NCBI GenBank assembly: GCA_012959435.1
Contig: DUDF01000116.1
Location: 5,366 to 69,365 of the forward strand
DNA length: 64,000 nucleotides
From: Candidatus Poseidoniales archaeon
GTDB taxonomy: Archaea; Thermoplasmatota; Poseidoniia; Poseidoniales; Thalassarchaeaceae
Direction of reading: 5' to 3'
Positions 25,145 through 43,738 of the stretch are shown here, one piece after another. Made by a program: the position numbers and the translations under genes. Position 1 is the first letter of the stretch. Each line of letters opens with the position of its first letter. The notes beneath the pieces are model-generated. The model was given only the letters and a program-made list of their open reading frames with translations, made no database searches and was not told the DNA's origin.

Positions 25145-26206
25145 TCACAGGTTTGCAATCCCTCGCTCTTGGATTCTCTTTACAAATTCAACATCTGGTG
25201 GAAGCCATTCCACATCCATCAATTCATCCTCAGAAAGCCAGCGGTTTTCATCATGGGATGTCATCACAGCCGGAGGCAATTCTCCATCCGCTTCACACAA
25301 GAAGAAGGTCAGGTGAACGACCATTTCTGGCCAAGCATGGGAATACTCTTCACACACTCTTATTGGTTTGATTGTCCAGCCAAACTCTTCGTGATACTCG
25401 CGACTAATCGCTGCCTCTTTGCTCTCACCTTTCTCGACCTTTCCGCCGGGGAATTCCCAGTAACCACCCATGTATTCATCGGATGACCTACGTGCCGCAA
25501 GTAGGCGATTATTTTCACCCCTCAACATACCGCCAACAACTTGCATCTCAGGCCTCTGTACAGTGATTGCAATAATCCGTTTCACCAAGGAAATTTGGGT
25601 TTCAAATGGTATTTTATCTGCCGATGGTAAGTGCACAAATAGAACAGGGATTGCTCGGTTCATTCGTTCTCTCACATCAGCCTGCTCAACTGCTTGGAGG
25701 GTTTTGAAATAAGTTTCATTGCAGATAAAGCGACCTGGGTCTTCACTCTTGCAAATTAATTCTTCATCAACAAACTCTGCCATCAACAAATTAATTGGGG
25801 CTGTTGTGTGTAATAGATTATGACTAGAATCTGTAATGACACCAGATGATACTTGTCGGCCTTTATTATCAGCAATACGAAAATCCAACTCATTGAATGC
25901 TGTTGCCTCCAAAGAGATGACATCTTGATTTTCAGCAAATCCTAGATGGATGATAGCTTGTGGCAACACAGTATCAGATTCAGTAATACTTGAGGCGATT
26001 GACTCGCTTCCTGCTTTGTCAACAGTTAGAATCTGTGATTTGATTTCAACTGATATTTCACGTGATTCAACTGCCATCGGCCCAAGTGGTGGGCCAATTG
26101 ATATCACATCGTTGAAATCTGCTAAATGTTCAGTAATTTGTTGTGAAATGTTGGTCTGATGCTCACCAAAAGGCTCGTAGCCTGTCAACCAAACTTCGAC
26201 CCCCAT
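25145..26206 (-). CDS. Fusion protein: pyroglutamyl peptidase I-like (C15) domain plus NUDIX hydrolase (MutT-like) domain
   Basis: N-terminal half: VWLTGYEPFGEHQTNIS, Glu in ISLEATAFN, Cys in PGRFICNETYF, His in VLFVHLP. C-terminal half has a complete Nudix box, GGKVEKGESKEAAISREYHEEFGW. I chose ATG 26206; the track start at 26209 is TTG. Confidence 0.8.
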   Translation of the reverse strand: MGVEVWLTGYEPFGEHQTNISQQITEHLADFNDVISIGPPLGPMAVESREISVEIKSQILTVDKAGSESIASSITESDTVLPQAIIHLGFAENQDVISLEATAFNELDFRIADNKGRQVSSGVITDSSHNLLHTTAPINLLMAEFVDEELICKSEDPGRFICNETYFKTLQAVEQADVRERMNRAIPVLFVHLPSADKIPFETQISLVKRIIAITVQRPEMQVVGGMLRGENNRLLAARRSSDEYMGGYWEFPGGKVEKGESKEAAISREYHEEFGWTIKPIRVCEEYSHAWPEMVVHLTFFLCEADGELPPAVMTSHDENRWLSEDELMDVEWLPPDVEFVKRIQERGIANL

Positions 26207-26256
26207 CAATAACCCCTACAACCGCTCTGATTGGGGCCGGTGGCGGGGTATCCATT

Positions 26257-27241: not shown

Positions 27242-30200
27242 TTACTGATTTGCAAAGGACTTAGCAGCTTCTTCCAATTCTTTACCATTGAGATAATTAT
27301 TACCATCTTTATCAAACTCAATTGCATGAGACATAAATGCTGCTTTGTCTGTGATATCATGTGCTTGCATCACTGAATCAACGACTGAATCTGAAAAATT
27401 GTATTGTGCTGCTGGGTGGTTTGCTGGAAGTTTCGCATCAACTTGAGGACTATCTAGGACATCAGTTCGTACCGCTGGTTGCGTAACCACCTCAGCACTA
27501 ACTGGACTGGTTTGTGGCACCTCTCCCTCACCTTGCTCAGCACGCCAAGTATCCACTTGCCATTGTGTCCATCCCTGAGCAATTAGCATCTCATCGGACC
27601 AACCCGAATAATCGGTCTCGAGACTAGGTGAATCAGTTGTTGGCTCAGATACTACTGAACTATCTGCGGTATTCTCAACAGGTTGCACGAAGCCATCAGG
27701 TGGAAGAGGTGTGGCATTCGGGTCAAACCCTGGTGGAGGTGGAGGTGGCGCATCAACATCAAACCCAGGAGGTGGAGGTGGTGAATCCATGGCTTCAACC
27801 ACTTCTAACACCTGTTCAGCAGGGTCTAATTCAAGGCCCTCATTTGATAACTGTCTGTTCATTGTTATCAACACAACAATTGCAATTAGTGCCACAATTA
27901 GCGCAATGTAAAGTAAAACAGTACCTGTTTGTTCAGTAAACTGTTGTGAAATAGCAGCACCATCACGAGCTACTGCAGGCTGGATTATCAATGGGTCAAG
28001 AGACATACGATCAAGAATGACATGGTTGTCTTTTACTATCAGTCGATAGCGCTCAACAGTCTCTTCATCAACCTTTGACGTCTGGATTGAAATCACGGAA
28101 GAGAAATTCCCATTGGCTCGTAATAAAGCATCAGTAGAAGCATTGTTGACATTTATCCAATCACCATCCTTGGTCTTTTGTTGCAAGGCAAAAGTAAGAG
28201 TACCCTCTTCACTATTTTCGTTAGCCCCGTCAATTAACAAACTAACGTTCTCACCCGACACAGGTGTAGCATCCGTCCAATAGACATCCAAGTCCATCAG
28301 AGTAACACTAGGGCCTACACGAACAATCCTCCATTGAGTAAGTGGAGTTTGTTCGGTATTATTTTCTGAAACATAGGGGTTCCCCGCAGCGTCTGCCCCA
28401 GTAACCCAAACATCAACCGTGTAGCCAGGGAGAAGTTCAGTAACTCCACCATCGGTTAGGTCAATTACACCAGTCCAGTGGCCATAGCCGTACTGTTCTA
28501 GGAGTGTTCCTAACTCTTGGGAACCTCTAGAAACCTCTGATTCCCCTGCCTTCACCTTGTAGTGTAAGACTGCAGTTCTTTGGGCTATGAATCCATGGTC
28601 ATCACTTGAATTAATGAAAACTGGAATATCTGATGCGTCTGTAATTGCGATATCACCTGATGGACTGATAGCATTAATCACTGGTGAATTACCATCAACT
28701 TCCAACAGGATTCTTGGCTGTTCTTCGCTTTCATCTGCAGCAAGACCCGGTAAATTTTCTAGCCATGCGATCATATCTAAATGTCCACTTCTGACATTGG
28801 GAACTAGAATGTCGCTAGTGAATTCGCCGTCATCTCTTGGCACTGCGCGCCATTCCAATTCAAGATTCCCAATTACGATGTCGAAAGCACCTTCTGGAGC
28901 AGGTGTCTCATCTTCACTGAATAGAATTCTGCCGCTAACTCTGATAACTTGCCCTGCTGCTATGGTCTCCTGTTCATCTCCGCCGTTGTAGAGGTTTCTT
29001 CCAGTCGCTAAATCAATCGCTGTGAAATGACCAGGGGCCATGTCAAAGCGAAGGTCATTATCTAGGCTCCAACGGTCATTACCAAGTCCATTGCGATGTT
29101 CAAAGCAAGCTATATCCTCCCCATCAAGGCAAGGCCAATCAGCGATTTCTATAACTGGAATAAATGTTGTATCGCCATTAGTATCCCAAATTTCGGAGAA
29201 ATGCCAAGTCAATTGGAATTGAATATCTAAATCAAGTGCTGTGTCATTAACGAAGGAGAAAGTGCTGTATAGGTTTGAAACTGCTAAACCATCACCACCT
29301 GACTCAAGATGCATTTTGATTCCACCGTCAGAAAGTTTAGTGAAATTCACCCAAATTGCTGTTTCATTCGCATCAATGTCGCTACCTAGTGCCATCTTGA
29401 TACTTTCAATATCATTCCAGCCATTATTATCCCAAACCCTCAGTTTGGCAATGTATTTTGTACCTGGATGCAACGGTGCTGAATCATCGTGGCCAACAAT
29501 AGTAGAATTACCATCAAGTACTAATTCTGGTTCAAATTCTTCACGGATTTTGTAAGTCACTAAATCAGCATCCCAGTCAGGAAGAGTTTGGGTTGGAAGT
29601 TCACCACATGGTGCATCGTCATCAAGACATACCGGGCCACCTCCCATCGCTAACACGTTTCCTTGTGCATCAGCACCAGACAAGAAGAAGGATACCATCT
29701 CTCCATGATGATTCATTGAATCTGTGATGAGACCTTCAAAAATATTGAGGCCACCGGGTTGTAGTTCTGGAGTTCTGAGTGAAAGTGTAGTGTACTCATT
29801 TTCATCTGGGATCTTATCATAATTCAAATCGTCTTGACCTTGGCGCCAGTAATGTAGAGTGAGTAAGGTTGGTGGGTCGACAGAGTCCTGTACAACTATT
29901 CTTATTGGCTGGTTAGGGCTACCCTTATGCCTCTCAGTACCATCTTCTGGAGTTGCTCCAATCACCAATGGGCTATTTCCATCTAAGACAATTCTTACTG
30001 AGTTAAATTCAGGATTGATATATGTTGAACCATTTTGGAGATTCACCGCTTTTATTCGGAAAAGCATCCCACCCGGTGATGACTCAATTGGCGAGGTGAT
30101 TGTCAATGAGTATTGCCCATGGCTTGGATTTGGCTCAATGTGGAACTGCTTCTCGGGCTCTTCAGGAATCCCATTCATGGATAGATTCTGGCCAGTCAAT

Positions 30201-32815
30201 TCAATACTAAATTGACCCGCATGCGGAGTATAAGTTGTCCCTTCGAACACAATACCTCCTTGGAATGTCATTTGTAGACCGCCTCGCATCCAATCATTAC
30301 CTTCAAGAATTCTTCCAGTTTCATCAGTCACTCCTAATTCAAGCAACACAATATCGTTTTCAACTCGAATATCCATGCCATCTGTTAACCAACCATTCAC
30401 TTGTCGGCCAATGTCATCGTCAACTATTATTTTTGCTTCAACATCCAATTCATCATTCCATTCCCAAGTTGATTCTATCGGGAAAAGTAATGAAAGATAT
30501 CCATTACTATCTGTGGATGATGAGCAGTTTCCAGCATCAAAACGAACTAAATTATCGGTGTTACTCACTAAATCACAAACATTACCACTCTGCCACTGTA
30601 ACACCGAATTATTACGGCCATTAGCCATTAGTTCAACTTGCACCTGAGTAATGCGATCTGCTTCATCACCTTCAGCTACTCTAACTAGTAACACACGAGT
30701 ATCACCATCTGGGACCAATATGTTCCCTTCAATTTCAGCACTGAGAGCACGAGTATTCATACGGTATGTGATATCAAGATTTGAAACTTTGATTCGCCCT
30801 GGTGAGCCAGCCGATAATCCCAGTGTGACGTTTGAAACACCTTCTCCATTGTCAATGATATGACTATTAAATGCACTAACTAGTGCCGCACCACTGATAT
30901 CAATTGGAGAATTCAATAAGCCGGTGCCAATGTATTCGTTGGTATTGTCTGCGCCAATATCAAGTCTAACTGCTGTAGGATATCCTTCTTCGTAATCAAG
31001 AGTAAAGGAATCAAGTAATGGAGTAAGTCCAGAATCTGTGGAGGAAAAACTGACTCGGTACTTTAGAGCAGACCCTTGGGTTTGCAATTCTATCAACTGG
31101 TTATTAGTTGCAGAATGCCAATTACTTCCATTGTCATTGCTAACCTCGACACTGAGTGAAGTACCAAGGGGAATAGTTTCAGTCCATTGTGGTTGCAAAG
31201 TACCTACTTGAGTACCCGTTGGTATCTCCGGAGAGGTCCAAGTACCAGATGTCGCATATGAGGTACCATATTCCATTGATAACCACCATGAAACAGCAGT
31301 TCCACCAACCAATTGTAACTTCCAACGCAAATGGTTTCCCGGATTTGAGAAATGAACTGTTTCATTATTTGTGACTTGGATCCAGTGAGTACCATTATCG
31401 GCACTAACCCAATAATCAACTCTGTCACCTGTTGAGGTCGCTGACCATGAGGTTTCCAAATTTGCCATTATCACGTCATCATTGGTAATAATTGGTTCTG
31501 ATATCCAACTAGCAGTCCCTGGTTGCGCCGAAATTGGATATGCCCATCCAGTCCCATATTCACGATAATATCGTGCAGACCACATGTAGTGGTCAATCAA
31601 GGATATCCTTGAACCATCGTAATAGAGACCAAATCCACGAGCAGTGATAGAACGCTCACCAGTTTGTTTTGCAAGAGTGGTTGATGTACCACTGATTGCA
31701 TAAGCTTCCAATCGGTCTTGATAGTAATTGAATTGACTTCTGAAGAAGAACATGTTGTTGTGAGCTACCAAACCATTTTGCTCACTATAACTAGAAAAGT
31801 AAGAGTATTGTAAATCCGTGTCCCTATCAAAAGAACCATCAGAGTTGAATGTGTAGGGAGTAACGGTGTTCCTTACTGAATGGAGAACCCAAATTAGGTC
31901 ACGACTCCTATCATAGGATATCCCTGTATAGGGACCATAGGAGTTTGAGGAAAGGTCGTAAGTGTTCTCACAAGTCCACACATCTTCGTAGCGAATATCA
32001 AACACCACCATCACTAATTCACTAATTGAGGCAGATTGCCTGTTCAATCCAAGAATACCGTACAACTTCTCGTCATCACCGATTGTCCAATCTCTGAATC
32101 CATAGTATGCGCTCCAAGTTGAGCCTGCGGGAGATGGAATGTTACAATTCCCTTCAACTATCGCGACGCTAGAAGCGGTACTGAGGTTGTTTGGATATGT
32201 CTTCTTCACGACTTGGTTAAGTGTGGTTGAGGCAAATGTCGAAACATAAGTCCAACCGCGGTAGTTGAGAGTTGCGCCTGCACCTTGATTTCCAAATGGC
32301 GAGGTAACTGTTCGCTGAGGATTGAATCTTGTTTCTGAGGCGTTGGATGTATGAGGTTGGCGAATTGAAAAAGAGCCATTATGGTTCCAAGCATTTCCAG
32401 AAGTTGGTGTTTCGTCAACTTGATGGGCTGAAAAATTTAGATCTGAAGATGCCAACCCCAGAGATATAGAGTCGGAACGAGGGTCTGTATCGACGGCATC
32501 TCCCACTACCCAATCTGCTCTAGAGGTTTGTTGAATCTGATTCCAACCGGTTGAAGATGCCCCTGAAAGAGTCATTTCCACAGCTGTAACTTCTGCCCCT
32601 TTTGGTAAAGAAACTTTGATGTTGGTTGCTTTTTGACCACTTTGATAGAGGGCTACCGCTTCAATCGAACCATCTGTAAAGGTGTAGATATGCCTTGAAC
32701 CACCAGATGCTTCAGCAACATCACTGGTGAGGTCCAACAGTGGTGCTAGTGAAGAAAGAATAAACAACAAAACTAGCATTGAGGGAATGTGTCTTCTGTT
32801 TACTTCACCCGGCAT
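27242..32815 (-). CDS. Giant (1857 aa) type I anchored surface protein with Asp-box repeats and a cytoplasmic polyproline/EF-hand tail
   Basis: Signal peptide IPSMLVLLFILSSLAPLLDL. Propeller-like repeats. Two BNR/Asp-box motifs (VSADNGTHW, VSNDNGSNW). A long beta-rich ectodomain, then one TM (VLLYIALIVALIAIVVLITM, 27860..27919) and a 205-aa tail. Confidence 0.85.
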   Translation of the reverse strand: MPGEVNRRHIPSMLVLLFILSSLAPLLDLTSDVAEASGGSRHIYTFTDGSIEAVALYQSGQKATNIKVSLPKGAEVTAVEMTLSGASSTGWNQIQQTSRADWVVGDAVDTDPRSDSISLGLASSDLNFSAHQVDETPTSGNAWNHNGSFSIRQPHTSNASETRFNPQRTVTSPFGNQGAGATLNYRGWTYVSTFASTTLNQVVKKTYPNNLSTASSVAIVEGNCNIPSPAGSTWSAYYGFRDWTIGDDEKLYGILGLNRQSASISELVMVVFDIRYEDVWTCENTYDLSSNSYGPYTGISYDRSRDLIWVLHSVRNTVTPYTFNSDGSFDRDTDLQYSYFSSYSEQNGLVAHNNMFFFRSQFNYYQDRLEAYAISGTSTTLAKQTGERSITARGFGLYYDGSRISLIDHYMWSARYYREYGTGWAYPISAQPGTASWISEPIITNDDVIMANLETSWSATSTGDRVDYWVSADNGTHWIQVTNNETVHFSNPGNHLRWKLQLVGGTAVSWWLSMEYGTSYATSGTWTSPEIPTGTQVGTLQPQWTETIPLGTSLSVEVSNDNGSNWHSATNNQLIELQTQGSALKYRVSFSSTDSGLTPLLDSFTLDYEEGYPTAVRLDIGADNTNEYIGTGLLNSPIDISGAALVSAFNSHIIDNGEGVSNVTLGLSAGSPGRIKVSNLDITYRMNTRALSAEIEGNILVPDGDTRVLLVRVAEGDEADRITQVQVELMANGRNNSVLQWQSGNVCDLVSNTDNLVRFDAGNCSSSTDSNGYLSLLFPIESTWEWNDELDVEAKIIVDDDIGRQVNGWLTDGMDIRVENDIVLLELGVTDETGRILEGNDWMRGGLQMTFQGGIVFEGTTYTPHAGQFSIELTGQNLSMNGIPEEPEKQFHIEPNPSHGQYSLTITSPIESSPGGMLFRIKAVNLQNGSTYINPEFNSVRIVLDGNSPLVIGATPEDGTERHKGSPNQPIRIVVQDSVDPPTLLTLHYWRQGQDDLNYDKIPDENEYTTLSLRTPELQPGGLNIFEGLITDSMNHHGEMVSFFLSGADAQGNVLAMGGGPVCLDDDAPCGELPTQTLPDWDADLVTYKIREEFEPELVLDGNSTIVGHDDSAPLHPGTKYIAKLRVWDNNGWNDIESIKMALGSDIDANETAIWVNFTKLSDGGIKMHLESGGDGLAVSNLYSTFSFVNDTALDLDIQFQLTWHFSEIWDTNGDTTFIPVIEIADWPCLDGEDIACFEHRNGLGNDRWSLDNDLRFDMAPGHFTAIDLATGRNLYNGGDEQETIAAGQVIRVSGRILFSEDETPAPEGAFDIVIGNLELEWRAVPRDDGEFTSDILVPNVRSGHLDMIAWLENLPGLAADESEEQPRILLEVDGNSPVINAISPSGDIAITDASDIPVFINSSDDHGFIAQRTAVLHYKVKAGESEVSRGSQELGTLLEQYGYGHWTGVIDLTDGGVTELLPGYTVDVWVTGADAAGNPYVSENNTEQTPLTQWRIVRVGPSVTLMDLDVYWTDATPVSGENVSLLIDGANENSEEGTLTFALQQKTKDGDWINVNNASTDALLRANGNFSSVISIQTSKVDEETVERYRLIVKDNHVILDRMSLDPLIIQPAVARDGAAISQQFTEQTGTVLLYIALIVALIAIVVLITMNRQLSNEGLELDPAEQVLEVVEAMDSPPPPPGFDVDAPPPPPPGFDPNATPLPPDGFVQPVENTADSSVVSEPTTDSPSLETDYSGWSDEMLIAQGWTQWQVDTWRAEQGEGEVPQTSPVSAEVVTQPAVRTDVLDSPQVDAKLPANHPAAQYNFSDSVVDSVMQAHDITDKAAFMSHAIEFDKDGNNYLNGKELEEAAKSFANQ
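27278..27313 (-). other. EF-hand calcium-binding loop in the cytoplasmic tail of the 1857-aa protein
   Basis: GAT AAA GAT GGT AAT AAT TAT CTC AAT GGT AAA GAA encodes DKDGNNYLNGKE, followed by L. It is flanked by helix-like KAAFMSHAIEF and LEEAAKSF. It satisfies every position of the PROSITE EF-hand loop pattern as I recall it. Confidence 0.7.
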
Positions 32816-39986: not shown

Positions 39987-40032
39987 GTATTTCACAGCGA
40001 ACCCATAAGAACGGGGAGGGTTAGTCACATCT

Positions 40033-41052
40033 GTGAGGCGGAGCGAGAGCCATAACGAGGACGCGGTTAGCGAAATCCTCGGAGTTACTATGCTGTTAGC
40101 CATGGTTGTCACTGTGATTGGGAGCGTGTTTGTACTACTCACCCCATTTCTTGAAGACATCAGCGACAATCGTGAATGGTCATCTGGCACAGTAGCAGCG
40201 ACTCAGTTAAACGACCGGATTTTAATTGCTGCTCAAACCCCAGAGGGTAGTGGATTGGTGCAACAAAACGCTCAACTTTCTCGGTCAATGGACCCACTAC
40301 AAGATGCTGAAATATGGGTGATTCAAGCAGATCTTGGAGGTAGTGACCGAACTGTAGTAACCCTTGATGGTGACCTGCTCACGGTCACCAGTCTCAATCG
40401 CACAGCATCAATTGTAAGAGTTAACGATTCGATTTCAACACAATCTTTCACAATGACAAACCACACAAATAATTTTACTGTTTCAGGTTTAATTGGCAAT
40501 GTGGTCATTGAAGTCGAGGATATTTACGGAACAATATCACATCGTTTCGTAGAGGTGGCAATTGATGGAATCCGCCTCAAAAATGTATTAACAGATGGGG
40601 AATTTTCAGTTGATTTAATCAACGGTGGAAGAATAGAGAAATTACCAAACCAGCCAGTTGTAGTCAAGCAATTCCCTCGTTTTAAAACAGATTTATTACT
40701 TGATGGGACACCAAGAGTTTCACTGATTCTTCTTGACCTTGATATTACATCTTCTGCAAGCCGACATATGACTAACGTACATCTGGATTCAAAAGGTGAA
40801 CAAGCACTATTTGACAGCGAAGCACGGAATCTAATTGTTGAGATTGAAATAGCAGGTGACCCTTCAATACCCCCTCAATATATCCACCACTGGACCGGTG
40901 ATTATGCCCTGTATCTGGCAGGCGACTCAATAAACGAGTACCAAGGATTTGGGCCAAACGGACGCATCTCAGGACTTGACGGGATAACGGTCCTACCAGG
41001 TGATGTACCATTCCAATTTGTTGTGACATTACAATCGGTGGAGGTATACTGA
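40033..41052 (+). CDS. Class III signal peptide (archaeal type IV pilin-like, DUF1628-type N-terminus) protein, 339 aa
   Basis: MRRSESHNEDAVSEILGVTMLLAMVVTVIGSVFVLL matches the archaeal pilin N-terminal pattern (charged leader, A|VS, ~22 hydrophobic residues). The rest is a beta-rich domain with several N-x-S/T sequons. GTG is the only start after the in-frame stop at 40006. Confidence 0.7.
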   Translation: MRRSESHNEDAVSEILGVTMLLAMVVTVIGSVFVLLTPFLEDISDNREWSSGTVAATQLNDRILIAAQTPEGSGLVQQNAQLSRSMDPLQDAEIWVIQADLGGSDRTVVTLDGDLLTVTSLNRTASIVRVNDSISTQSFTMTNHTNNFTVSGLIGNVVIEVEDIYGTISHRFVEVAIDGIRLKNVLTDGEFSVDLINGGRIEKLPNQPVVVKQFPRFKTDLLLDGTPRVSLILLDLDITSSASRHMTNVHLDSKGEQALFDSEARNLIVEIEIAGDPSIPPQYIHHWTGDYALYLAGDSINEYQGFGPNGRISGLDGITVLPGDVPFQFVVTLQSVEVY

Positions 41053-43265
41053 TGCGTCGTAGATTCGATGATGAAGCGGTTTCTGCGGCGATCGCAACTG
41101 TTCTACTGTTTGCTGGTGTGCTTGGTATCATTGCTGGGATGATGGTTACTATCACCCCCCTGATTAATGAGAAACACGGCTCAGTTGAAAGGCAAGCAAT
41201 GGCAGGTCAAATGGAGGATTTAGCTGCTGAAACAGTCAGAATCTCTGAAAATGGGTTGCCGGGAGATTCTGCAATCATACAACTCAGACCACACTCAGGA
41301 GAATTAGGTTGGGACTTAGCCCAGGGAGGGACATGGTATTCGGTTGCCTTCGTTGAGGGTGGTAGTTTGCGTCTTGATGGATTACTAGATTTAGATGACA
41401 AAACTAGAATACGATATTCTGAAAGTGAAGTTTCCGCGGCTTGTTTTTCAGATCTTAGAGCAAATAAGGACGCTACTTGGAATTACAGAATCCCAAGTAT
41501 TAGTGGTACTATTCTGGCCACACCTGCTACCAGCCTCCAACAACCACTTTATGATACCACGGTGAAATACACAACTGGAGTAACTAGTAGTTATTATTCT
41601 CTAATTCCTGGTTCAGTATTGTCAACTTCATCAACTGAAGAAAGTTGGTTACAATCGGATGGCCCACTGAAAGTCATATTCTTACGAGGTAATGGAGGAG
41701 TCACGATGGTTGAGCCTGACCTAGTCAACCCTTCAGATGGTAAAGGAAGGTCATGGACAATACCGATGCCAACTGGGTCTGTTAGTTTACATCTTGTCAG
41801 TTCTGATTTAACTACTGTTAGTTGGGATTCTAATTCCAACTCCGGTACTGCTACTAGTACCGGTTCACCTGCAACGTGGAATAGTGATTTCACCACATTA
41901 GCAGGGGATGTGATGACCGTTCATTCCAGCACCCCTGCGAGATTGATGATGGTTTGGGGTGGCGCCACAGGCGCCACTGTGTGGCCTGATGATGGAGGTA
42001 GTGGATTAGGGATTAGTCACACACTTCCTGCAGCAGCGGGTAGTATTCTGATTGAAAATCCCGAAACCACATCAATAGCTGTTCAGATTGATGGGTTGTT
42101 CAACACTATTTCTGCTCAAAGTTCAATACGAATTCCATGGCCAGCAATATCATCACAGATTGTATCAACTGGTCCAGTACAAGTTCATTGGCTTGCAGAA
42201 GATGCAAGTAACTCTTATCGCACTGGCTCACTTGAAATGATTCCTGCCACAGATACTGGGCGCTCAAGTGGCCTAGAACACTCGTATGCAACACCAACTT
42301 CAGCGGCTGACGAAAGAGTTCTGATTCAGCCAGCCAGCCCCGAAACATCTCTAATATTAATTGCAGACCTTGAAGCGGGCCAATCAGCTCAAATCACAGT
42401 GAACAATTCTAACGGTAGCCACCTAGCAACTCTTACTCCAACGGCTTCAAACTTAGTGAGAACCACAGTTAATTCAACAGACCAACTGGATGACGCACCA
42501 TTCCGAATTATATCAGTAGCAGGAGATGATGGGATGATGGAAATTCGCCAAGATGGAGAGCAGAGATGCTTGCCCATTGGATACTGGGCTTCAGGTTGGG
42601 TTGAATTAAACCTCCCTTGGGAAGATTTTTCACACTATAACACTGCTATTGTGAAGGATGCATGGAAGGATGGGTCACATCCTTTGGGAGTTGAAGTCAC
42701 TCTATTTGGGCCACAAAATGGCGCCCCACATCACACCCTAGCAGCTGCTTGGGGTGCACACTTACCTCGCCTAAACTACGAATTCCAAAGTTCGGTTTCT
42801 GGCATGGAAATTGGCTACCGTGGAGGATTTGTTGGAACCAATCACCCTGAGTATCAAGCCGATGTTCTAATTCTCCCACCAGCACGTGAAGGTCCTGGAC
42901 CAAGATTAGCAGTCACAATACCCCTGACCATGCCTGCAGACAGTTCTTCAATCGGAAATAGCCGAGTTGCTCTTACTGTTTCATTAGATCAAAGAGTTCA
43001 GTTGGTATCTGTACAGGCACATGAAATACGCCGCGGATGGGATGGACCATATGGGTCTGCAATTGCTGCTGAATCATCTCAAGAATTGGCTTTCAGCGCC
43101 GACTGGTTGACATTCCCCGGGCGCATTGACCTTCTCGATGATTATGTTGGCTGGGTACAATTGACGCATTCTAGCCCTGAGGCAATTTACCATGCATCTG
43201 GTGAATCGATAATGTTCAATCTACAACTGAGTCAGATATCTATTGATACGGAGTTGATTATTTGA
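41052..43265 (+). CDS. Class III signal peptide (pilin-like) protein, 737 aa
   Basis: MRRRFDDEAVSAAIATVLLFAGVLGIIAGMMVTI. The ATG overlaps the upstream stop (ATGA at 41049..41054). The C-terminal block MEIGYRGGFVGTNHPEYQADVLILPP...RLAVTIPL resembles the block DLINGGRIEKLPNQPVVVKQFPRF...RVSLILLDL in gene 1. Confidence 0.7.
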   Translation: MRRRFDDEAVSAAIATVLLFAGVLGIIAGMMVTITPLINEKHGSVERQAMAGQMEDLAAETVRISENGLPGDSAIIQLRPHSGELGWDLAQGGTWYSVAFVEGGSLRLDGLLDLDDKTRIRYSESEVSAACFSDLRANKDATWNYRIPSISGTILATPATSLQQPLYDTTVKYTTGVTSSYYSLIPGSVLSTSSTEESWLQSDGPLKVIFLRGNGGVTMVEPDLVNPSDGKGRSWTIPMPTGSVSLHLVSSDLTTVSWDSNSNSGTATSTGSPATWNSDFTTLAGDVMTVHSSTPARLMMVWGGATGATVWPDDGGSGLGISHTLPAAAGSILIENPETTSIAVQIDGLFNTISAQSSIRIPWPAISSQIVSTGPVQVHWLAEDASNSYRTGSLEMIPATDTGRSSGLEHSYATPTSAADERVLIQPASPETSLILIADLEAGQSAQITVNNSNGSHLATLTPTASNLVRTTVNSTDQLDDAPFRIISVAGDDGMMEIRQDGEQRCLPIGYWASGWVELNLPWEDFSHYNTAIVKDAWKDGSHPLGVEVTLFGPQNGAPHHTLAAAWGAHLPRLNYEFQSSVSGMEIGYRGGFVGTNHPEYQADVLILPPAREGPGPRLAVTIPLTMPADSSSIGNSRVALTVSLDQRVQLVSVQAHEIRRGWDGPYGSAIAAESSQELAFSADWLTFPGRIDLLDDYVGWVQLTHSSPEAIYHASGESIMFNLQLSQISIDTELII

Positions 43266-43738
43266 GACGCAATTCAGAATTTATGCGCGATACTGTTGCC
43301 GCAGCCACCGAGTTAGGGTATGTGCTGACTTTCTTGCTTGGACTCTCATTCCTGTCAGTATTCAGTATTTGGACATGGGAACTTCAGGATGAGCGAGGAG
43401 ATGTATGGTTAGAACAGGCAATGGAGGAGAACTTAGATTCCATCGCAGAAGCAGTGGAACGAGCAGATCTTGCTAGCCGGCAGGAAGGTGATATCACCTA
43501 TGCTGAACCAGTTGACCTACTTTTATCTAAAGCAGTAAATCTTCAATTAAGATTAATATTAAACGATAATGAATTATTAATGCAAGATAAAGGTGAAACT
43601 TTGGTATTCTCAAGAGATATTTCGTCGGCTAGTGCCACCAACCATAGCGGAGAAGTAGAATTAGCTGGTTTACAACGAATATGGGTATTGCTTCAGGGAA
43701 ATAATGTAACTATCACCAGTAACCAACCAGGATTCTAG
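43262..43738 (+). CDS. Small pilin-like or N-terminally anchored protein, third gene of the operon
   Basis: MRRNSEFMRDTVAAATELGYVLTFLLGLSFLSVFSIW. The TTG start overlaps the upstream TGA. An alternative ATG at 43283 gives MRDTVAAA.... Confidence 0.5.
   Translation: MRRNSEFMRDTVAAATELGYVLTFLLGLSFLSVFSIWTWELQDERGDVWLEQAMEENLDSIAEAVERADLASRQEGDITYAEPVDLLLSKAVNLQLRLILNDNELLMQDKGETLVFSRDISSASATNHSGEVELAGLQRIWVLLQGNNVTITSNQPGF

Follow-up and report, generated by a model that had tools for sequence, protein, structure and literature searches.

The window analyzed here, a stretch of 64,000 nucleotides, corresponds to positions 5366-69365 of contig C116 (DUDF01000116.1) of a 2.2-Mb metagenome-assembled genome (MAG) of the Thalassarchaeaceae (marine group IIb, MGIIb) within the Poseidoniales. 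The MAG consists of 203 contigs and is 77% complete. Three consecutive genes on the plus strand of this window, hereafter called the trio, encode proteins with pilin-like N-termini: gene 1 (40033-41052, GTG start, 339 amino acids (aa)), gene 2 (41052-43265, ATG start, 737 aa), and gene 3 (43262-43738, TTG start, 158 aa). The list of open reading frames (ORFs) contained all three at the coordinates given in a preliminary description of this DNA, with N-termini exactly as quoted there. Genes 1 and 2 share one nucleotide in a TGATG stop/start overlap (41050..41054, plus strand) rather than in an ATGA at 41049..41054, as had been noted earlier, and the 4-nt TTGA overlap of genes 2 and 3 (43262..43265, plus strand) was correctly described. 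GGAGG-like ribosome-binding sites are located 7-13 nt upstream of all three starts. These are the Shine-Dalgarno-like GGGGAGGG (40013..40020, plus strand) 13 nt in front of the GTG of gene 1, the Shine-Dalgarno-like GGTGGAGG (41037..41044, plus strand) 7 nt in front of the ATG of gene 2 and within the end of gene 1, and a GGAG (43250..43253, plus strand) 8 nt in front of the TTG of gene 3. Judged from the sequence, the trio is translationally coupled and forms one operon-like unit. A scan for sigma-70 promoters and terminators did not exceed background level; the sigma-70 consensus is irrelevant for an archaeal host.

The three products are acidic (isoelectric points 4.3-4.6) and contain a single hydrophobic segment each, located at the N-terminus. 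All of them combine a short charged leader, G or A at position -1, and an N-terminal hydrophobic stretch of about 20 residues, which is the arrangement of class III signal peptides. Alignments of orthologues (26 for gene 1, 25 for gene 2, and 17 for gene 3) placed a sharp boundary at the predicted cleavage site. Position -1 is exclusively A or G in all aligned orthologues, and the fraction of the most frequent residue is 0.37-0.58 in the leader versus 0.81-0.91 at mature positions +1 to +20. In gene 1, cleavage of the leader MRRSESHNEDA is predicted between A11 and V12, with the mature protein starting at VSEILGVTMLLAMV. Its consensus is x[A/G]^VSE[IV]xGVxMLLAMV (the caret marks the predicted site), in which V12, S13, E14, G17, V18, and M20 are invariant. 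The leader of gene 2, MRRRFDDEA, is predicted to be cleaved between A9 and V10 in front of VSAAIATVLLFAGV, and in its consensus [DE][DE]A^VSAAIATVL residues A9 to V17 are invariant. For gene 3 a T^V site had been proposed. This was not borne out, since the conserved A/G at residue 13 moves the site by two residues. The leader MRRNSEFMRDTVA is more likely to be cleaved between A13 and A14, before AATELGY, so that the mature protein would start at AATELGYVLTFLLGL; the consensus reads x[A/G]^A[AS]TE[LIM]GY with E17, G19, and Y20 invariant.

Conservation upstream of Met20 in the gene 1 orthologues supports the GTG start. Many database entries of this gene start at Met20 (320, 316 or 308 aa) and thereby lose the leader and half of the hydrophobic helix (window positions 40033-40092). 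An acidic residue at position -2 had been regarded as characteristic of genes 1 and 2. It is present here, but it is not peculiar to the operon. Gene 1 orthologues of other genera carry R or K at this position (ERA^VSE, DRA^VSE, EKA^VSE), and the true Pilin_N pilins of the same genome have the junctions EEA^VS, EQA^VS, ETA^VS, and ERA^VS. The acidic -2 residue is a local variant.

No Pfam or NCBIfam family scored above cut-off for any trio protein, the gathering scores being 25.2 bits for Pilin_N (PF07790), 27 bits for DUF7289 (PF23960), and 27.6 bits for DUF7266 (PF23928). Below these cut-offs, gene 1 matched positions 1-28 of Pilin_N with 14.9 bits (E 0.05; best orthologue E 7.9e-4) and positions 2-55 of the 238-position DUF7289 model with 18.3 bits (best orthologue E 2.3e-5). 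Gene 2 matched positions 2-72 of DUF7289, likewise below cut-off, with 14.8 bits. Such sub-threshold matches were found for 25 (DUF7289) and 22 (Pilin_N) of the 26 gene 1 orthologues. Position 1 of the Pilin_N model falls at the -2 residue of gene 1, which is the register of the true pilins of this genome, and four PilA-like proteins of the same genome included as controls passed Pilin_N at 34.6-44.9 bits. In the Pilin_N search suggested in the preliminary description, gene 1 is in register but sub-threshold, and genes 2 and 3 are not matched. DUF7266 was weakly matched by 5 of the 17 gene 3 orthologues (best E 2.7e-4, sub-threshold) and not by the gene 3 of the window itself.

In a profile-profile comparison, genes 1 and 2 aligned over the first 41 columns only, i.e. 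the leader and helix (probability 88%, E 3e-6). A shared block downstream of the helix, which had been postulated for these two genes, was not found. Similarity of gene 3 to gene 1 or 2 was also considered and rejected, as there is none at the profile level. For genes 1 and 2 the assignment as class III signal peptide proteins is backed by A/G at -1, the sharp boundary, sub-threshold profile matches of gene 1 in the register of true pilins, and predicted helix-plus-beta structures; gene 3 is alike in architecture but lacks profile similarity. The pilin-like reading of genes 1 and 2 holds as far as sequence can show.

AlphaFold models were available for genes 1 and 2. Gene 1 was modelled as a helix (residues 8-68) followed by a beta-rich domain (pLDDT 75), and gene 2 as a helix (residues 7-67) and an all-beta region from approximately residue 73 to 580 (pLDDT 72). 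Both models display the pilin-type architecture of a long N-terminal helix and a beta-rich globular part. The C-terminal region of gene 2 (580-737) is highly conserved and poorly modelled. Foldseek searches against the PDB resulted in weak vicilin-type jelly-roll matches only for gene 2 (TM below 0.2) and in small Ig/FN3 domains only for gene 1 (E above 0.01), and a sequence profile search of the PDB found nothing. All 26 gene 1 orthologues retain an N-x-S/T sequon at N122, which would fit an outside, glycosylated location of the protein.

Large class III signal peptide proteins with varied C-termini that are encoded away from filament loci have been reported to be widespread (PMC13705601), and gene 2 contains approximately 500 residues of beta domains. 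The trio could consist of functionalised class III signal peptide proteins that resemble the bindosome of the Sulfolobales. In that case, a short pseudopilus would carry large beta domains that bind substrates or particles, in place of an adhesion pilus. We regard this explanation as quite unlikely. No substrate-binding-protein domain was found in the trio with Pfam or NCBIfam, nor was an ABC transporter found among the neighbours. Furthermore, the three genes are fixed as a coupled set, unlike single binding proteins.

Word-based searches returned matches from marine group II proteins only, all of which are named 'hypothetical' or 'uncharacterized' in their sources. An exhaustive profile search of 1.84 billion representatives re-discovered only the trio family itself, with about 12 full-length clusters and no outside relatives of gene 2. 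Among 151 Thermoplasmatota genomes full-length matches were confined to the Poseidoniales; outside this order, the phylum-wide genome search yielded one 19.5-bit match restricted to the N-terminal helix region. The distribution within the family was surveyed in 64 Thalassarchaeaceae genomes with a completeness of 85% or more, and in this MAG, with gene 2 as marker of the trio. Gene 2 is present in 16 of the 64 genomes, representing 6 genera, and absent from all 48 genomes of 7 streamlined genera (1.2-1.7 Mb), one of these genomes being a single contig. The trio is not order-wide within the Poseidoniales.

The trio is embedded in a block of cell-surface genes whose order is kept in all three families of the order: a 1910-aa gene, MBL, trio, STAND, a 1453-aa gene, S8, and AglB. 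A giant 1857-aa gene (window 27242-32815, minus strand), encoding a signal peptide, a transmembrane helix and a cytoplasmic tail and without a Pfam match, was found at the block end wherever the fetched flank reaches. In five trio-less genera the genes for AglB, the S8 peptidase, the 1453-aa beta-helix protein, the wHTH-STAND-TPR protein, the MBL hydrolase, and the 1910-aa TSP3 protein are still in order. The end of the STAND gene abuts the end of the MBL gene in these loci, the trio having gone as a block. A dedicated role for the MBL hydrolase or the STAND regulator was rejected, as both persist without the trio. The 1857-aa gene is gone from the syntenic position in all four trio-less loci with that side covered, and the adjoining 1910-aa gene stays. 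Close to this block, a single 354-aa ORF (window 25145-26209, minus strand) combines a pyroglutamyl peptidase (Peptidase_C15) with a NUDIX domain and is conserved beside the surface-protein block in relatives.

The conserved block order in all three families, together with the absence of the 1857-aa gene from the trio-less loci, would be compatible with a pilus-independent envelope complex in which the trio serves its conserved neighbours (giant adhesins, STAND, S8 protease, giant AglB), e.g. in anchoring or export. However, all other neighbours keep their order without the trio in the five trio-less genera, and the trio is absent wherever both pilus ATPases described below are absent (48 out of 48 genomes). 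This makes an envelope complex of that type very improbable.

The trio had been described as an orphan locus. This applies to the window only, as no T2SSE or Peptidase_A24 match was obtained on its contig, in agreement with the earlier statement that neither an assembly ATPase nor a prepilin peptidase is encoded within the window. The genome itself contains an archaellum operon (C202:37699-44289) and, in addition, two pilus ATPase/platform loci that are not of the archaellum type. One of the pilus loci encodes an ATPase, two T2SSF proteins, and two small pilin-like genes (C25:6412-11509), the other an ATPase and two T2SSF (TadC) proteins without any pilin gene (C15:21999-24584). In the 64 Thalassarchaeaceae genomes, the C15-type ATPase was found in 16 of 16 trio-bearing and 0 of 48 trio-less genomes and the C25-type ATPase in 14 of 16 and 0 of 48, respectively. 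The archaellum (ArlI-type) ATPase was found in 6 of 16 trio-bearing and 13 of 48 trio-less genomes. These counts indicate that the trio tracks the pilus motors rather than the archaellum or the genes next to it in the surface block. A linkage to the archaellum was rejected on the basis of the ArlI-type counts; the arl operon lies on another contig.

Co-occurrence with pilus ATPases could also be explained if the trio proteins kept their leaders as N-terminal anchors and belonged to a type IV pilus machine as accessory parts, in the manner of the stator or alignment proteins ArlF/ArlG and PilN/PilO, and did not serve as filament subunits. The single N-terminal helix per protein, the lack of pilin profile similarity in gene 3, and the sub-threshold scores of all Pfam pilin models would be in line with this. 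On the other hand, the restriction of position -1 to A/G, the sharp conservation boundary at the predicted site in all three proteins, and the Pilin_N register of gene 1 speak for cleaved pilin-like proteins, and the trio adjoins neither pilus machine in any genome examined. Encoding in an arl operon and an ArlI/ArlJ-like distribution, as for ArlF/ArlG-type proteins, were not found for the trio. We therefore consider an accessory role of this kind unlikely.

Of the two pilus machines, the C15-type would be the likelier assembler of both the PilA-like pilins and the trio. In three families the C25-type locus comes with two small pilins of its own, which have [G/A]Q^ junctions. The A^VS junction, by contrast, is common to the trio and the PilA-like pilins, and a PilA-like A^VSPVIATV gene is located about 6 kb from the C15-type ATPase in three marine group IIa genera. 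A hidden Markov model built from the N-termini of genes 1 and 2 picks up the PilA-like AVSPVIATIL proteins of the genome, not the C25-locus pilins. The C15-type is favoured because of the shared junction, the nearby PilA-like gene, and this N-terminal model, and because its locus lacks a pilin gene of its own. Three conserved genes (about 574, 308, and 121 aa; C15:24601-27637, kept in L092-L096) always precede the C15-type ATPase/TadC locus. None of them has a pilin-like N-terminus, and they are possible cytoplasmic partners of the C15-type machine.

Removal of the leaders would require a peptidase that standard models miss in this lineage. Pfam Peptidase_A24 gave no match at cut-off in any of 31 Poseidoniales genomes, but it did give one in 12 out of 14 control genomes. 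A 326-aa protein was found through one 18-bit Peptidase_A24 match (L001:1462-2442; homologues e.g. in L052-L059 and L089-L091) and matched Arc_PepC_II with E 4.6e-6. Its family shares the invariant motifs AAW[MLF]DH[KR]xRRVxNE and HGGADAKA, and the Asp residues of both motifs correspond in position to the catalytic Asp pair of A24 peptidases. Among the database homologues, PF06847 is assigned to most and PF01478 in addition to some, and nearly all are called hypothetical. The 326-aa protein probably is a divergent A24-type prepilin/preflagellin peptidase and is a candidate for the enzyme that removes the leaders. Its gene was identified in 15 of the 16 trio-bearing Thalassarchaeaceae genomes, in 13 of 14 genomes from the two trio-less genera with a retained archaellum, where it lies about 3 kb from ArlI, and in none of the 34 genomes without any filament ATPase. 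The distribution of the A24-like peptidase mirrors the presence of any type IV filament ATPase.

Taken together, we read the trio with moderate confidence as type IV pilin-like surface subunits, best understood as a set of minor or tip pilins with assembly in trans. Since it is confined to relatives that keep two pilus motors, it probably contributes parts of an attachment pilus and is not a free-standing oddity. The assignment as a minor-pilin set follows from the three genes being single-copy, coupled, size-graded (158, 339, and 737 aa), and separate from the many small PilA-like pilins. In the proposed mechanism, each product would be inserted into the membrane via its N-terminal helix. This lineage's divergent class III signal peptidase of A24 type would cut off the short charged leader behind the conserved A/G, and a type IV pilus machine whose genes lie at another site in the genome would incorporate the mature proteins. 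There they may form an initiation or tip complex, in which the 737-aa all-beta protein would be the exposed and probably adhesive head.

Several points weigh against this interpretation. Neither cleavage nor a filament has been observed. None of the three proteins scores above the cut-off of a Pfam pilin model, gene 3 lacks detectable similarity to genes 1 and 2 or to Pilin_N in profile comparisons, and the fold searches yielded generic Ig, FN3, and jelly-roll matches and no pilin. A FlaFind-style pattern is passed by gene 2 only among the trio. It listed 18 ORFs in the genome, which by their appearance are mostly ordinary signal peptides or membrane anchors, gene 2 apart. Because it missed the true Pilin_N pilins of the genome, this pattern decides nothing and was given no weight. 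More than 200 kb separate the trio from any of the ATPase genes in complete genomes. A tree of the STAND protein unites the five trio-less genera sampled in one clade (support 100/100). The joint loss of ATPases and trio may consequently be a single event in the course of genome streamlining (from about 2.0 to 1.4 Mb) and then carries little statistical weight. As both pilus machines were lost together, the phyletic pattern is unable to choose between the C15- and the C25-type. Finally, the A24-like peptidase gene was not found on the contigs of this MAG. The preliminary description had named the absence of a prepilin peptidase as evidence against its reading, and formally this applies to the incomplete genome; yet all 15 other trio-bearing members of the family have an A24-type peptidase. 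The gap is attributed to incompleteness because 16 of 18 genomes of the same genus contain the gene.

Minor-pilin tip complexes are known from bacteria, namely GspI-GspJ-GspK of type II secretion and FimU/PilVWX of type IVa pili, and the minor pilins of Methanococcus maripaludis are EpdA-C. Like these, the trio comprises several size-graded, single-copy pilin-like proteins that are encoded together and apart from the major pilin, with the largest one as the tip candidate. This is an analogy only, as homology was not detected, and any priming or capping role of the trio is putative.

A closer parallel is provided by euryarchaea, in which pilin sets encoded in trans from ATPase/TadC modules, ATPase/TadC loci without pilin genes, and large all-beta minor pilins have been described (PMC4858521). 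In Haloferax volcanii PilA1-6 are assembled by PilB3/PilC3, and minor pilins of arCOG02911 comprise 250-550 aa (Makarova, Koonin and Albers 2016, PMC4858521). The trio shares with such pilins the class III type N-terminus, the A^VS junction, genes far from the motor, large and variable sizes, all-beta domains, and an ATPase locus without a pilin gene of its own. It differs in lacking any sequence relationship beyond sub-threshold leader/helix matches and in being a fixed three-gene unit with a 737-aa member, which is located in a conserved cell-surface block and confined to the Poseidoniales. A similar picture emerged for the haloarchaeal pilin-like families DUF7289 and DUF7266 (with DUF7261 and DUF7287). 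Gene 1 orthologues (25 out of 26) match the first 55-72 positions of DUF7289 and gene 3 orthologues (5 out of 17) match DUF7266, but these scores are sub-threshold and restricted to the N-terminal helix region, the globular parts being unmatched. In the literature searched, no text naming DUF7289, DUF7266, DUF7261, DUF7287 or DUF7288 was found. Two surveys of archaeal type IV filaments do not mention Poseidoniales or marine group II (PMC4858521, PMC13705601), and the main genomics paper on the Poseidoniales discusses archaella and thrombospondin-like genes only (PMC6461757).

The size of the trio proteins, which had been called unusual, has to be seen in relation to other archaeal proteins. 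Large pilin-like proteins of archaea are known (PMC4858521, PMC13705601), among them adhesin-like ones and further large proteins with class III signal peptides (PMC13705601), and the genome analyzed here encodes Pilin_N proteins of 399 and 512 aa (C89:12247-13443 and C89:15735-17270). The N-terminal pilin halves of these two proteins are almost identical, and their C-terminal modules differ, with Receptor L/LRR-like repeats in the 399-aa protein. They indicate that functionalised large pilins are common in this genome. Outside the window, a 4638-residue open frame (C74:49321-63234) encodes a signal peptide, a giant ectodomain, a transmembrane helix, and an acidic linker. It runs in frame into a complete PilA-like module (DDDRA^VSPVIATILLVAITV..., Pilin_N 38.5 bits).

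Poseidoniales have not been brought into culture and are highly abundant in surface seawater. The trio is a real, previously unannotated family of pilin-like proteins confined to this order. Its distribution links the family with two pilus machines and with a prepilin peptidase missed by standard models. One entire clade of MGIIb with small genomes dropped the trio and both pilus motors, and also the peptidase where the archaellum is gone. These genes provide testable genomic markers for attached versus free-living lifestyles. The discussion of how Poseidoniales attach to particles or algae has up to now centred on archaella and thrombospondin-like proteins (PMC6461757). We tentatively speculate, at odds that fall clearly short of even, that the trio is the dedicated initiation/tip complex of a PilA-type adhesion pilus of the Poseidoniales, that the 737-aa protein is a new kind of adhesive head, and that loss of the trio with both motors is the signature of one Thalassarchaeaceae clade turning to a small-genome, pilus-free life. 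If this tip-complex reading were true, the trio would be a genomic marker of, and a handle on, attachment to particles or phytoplankton in the planktonic archaea that are most abundant in the surface ocean.

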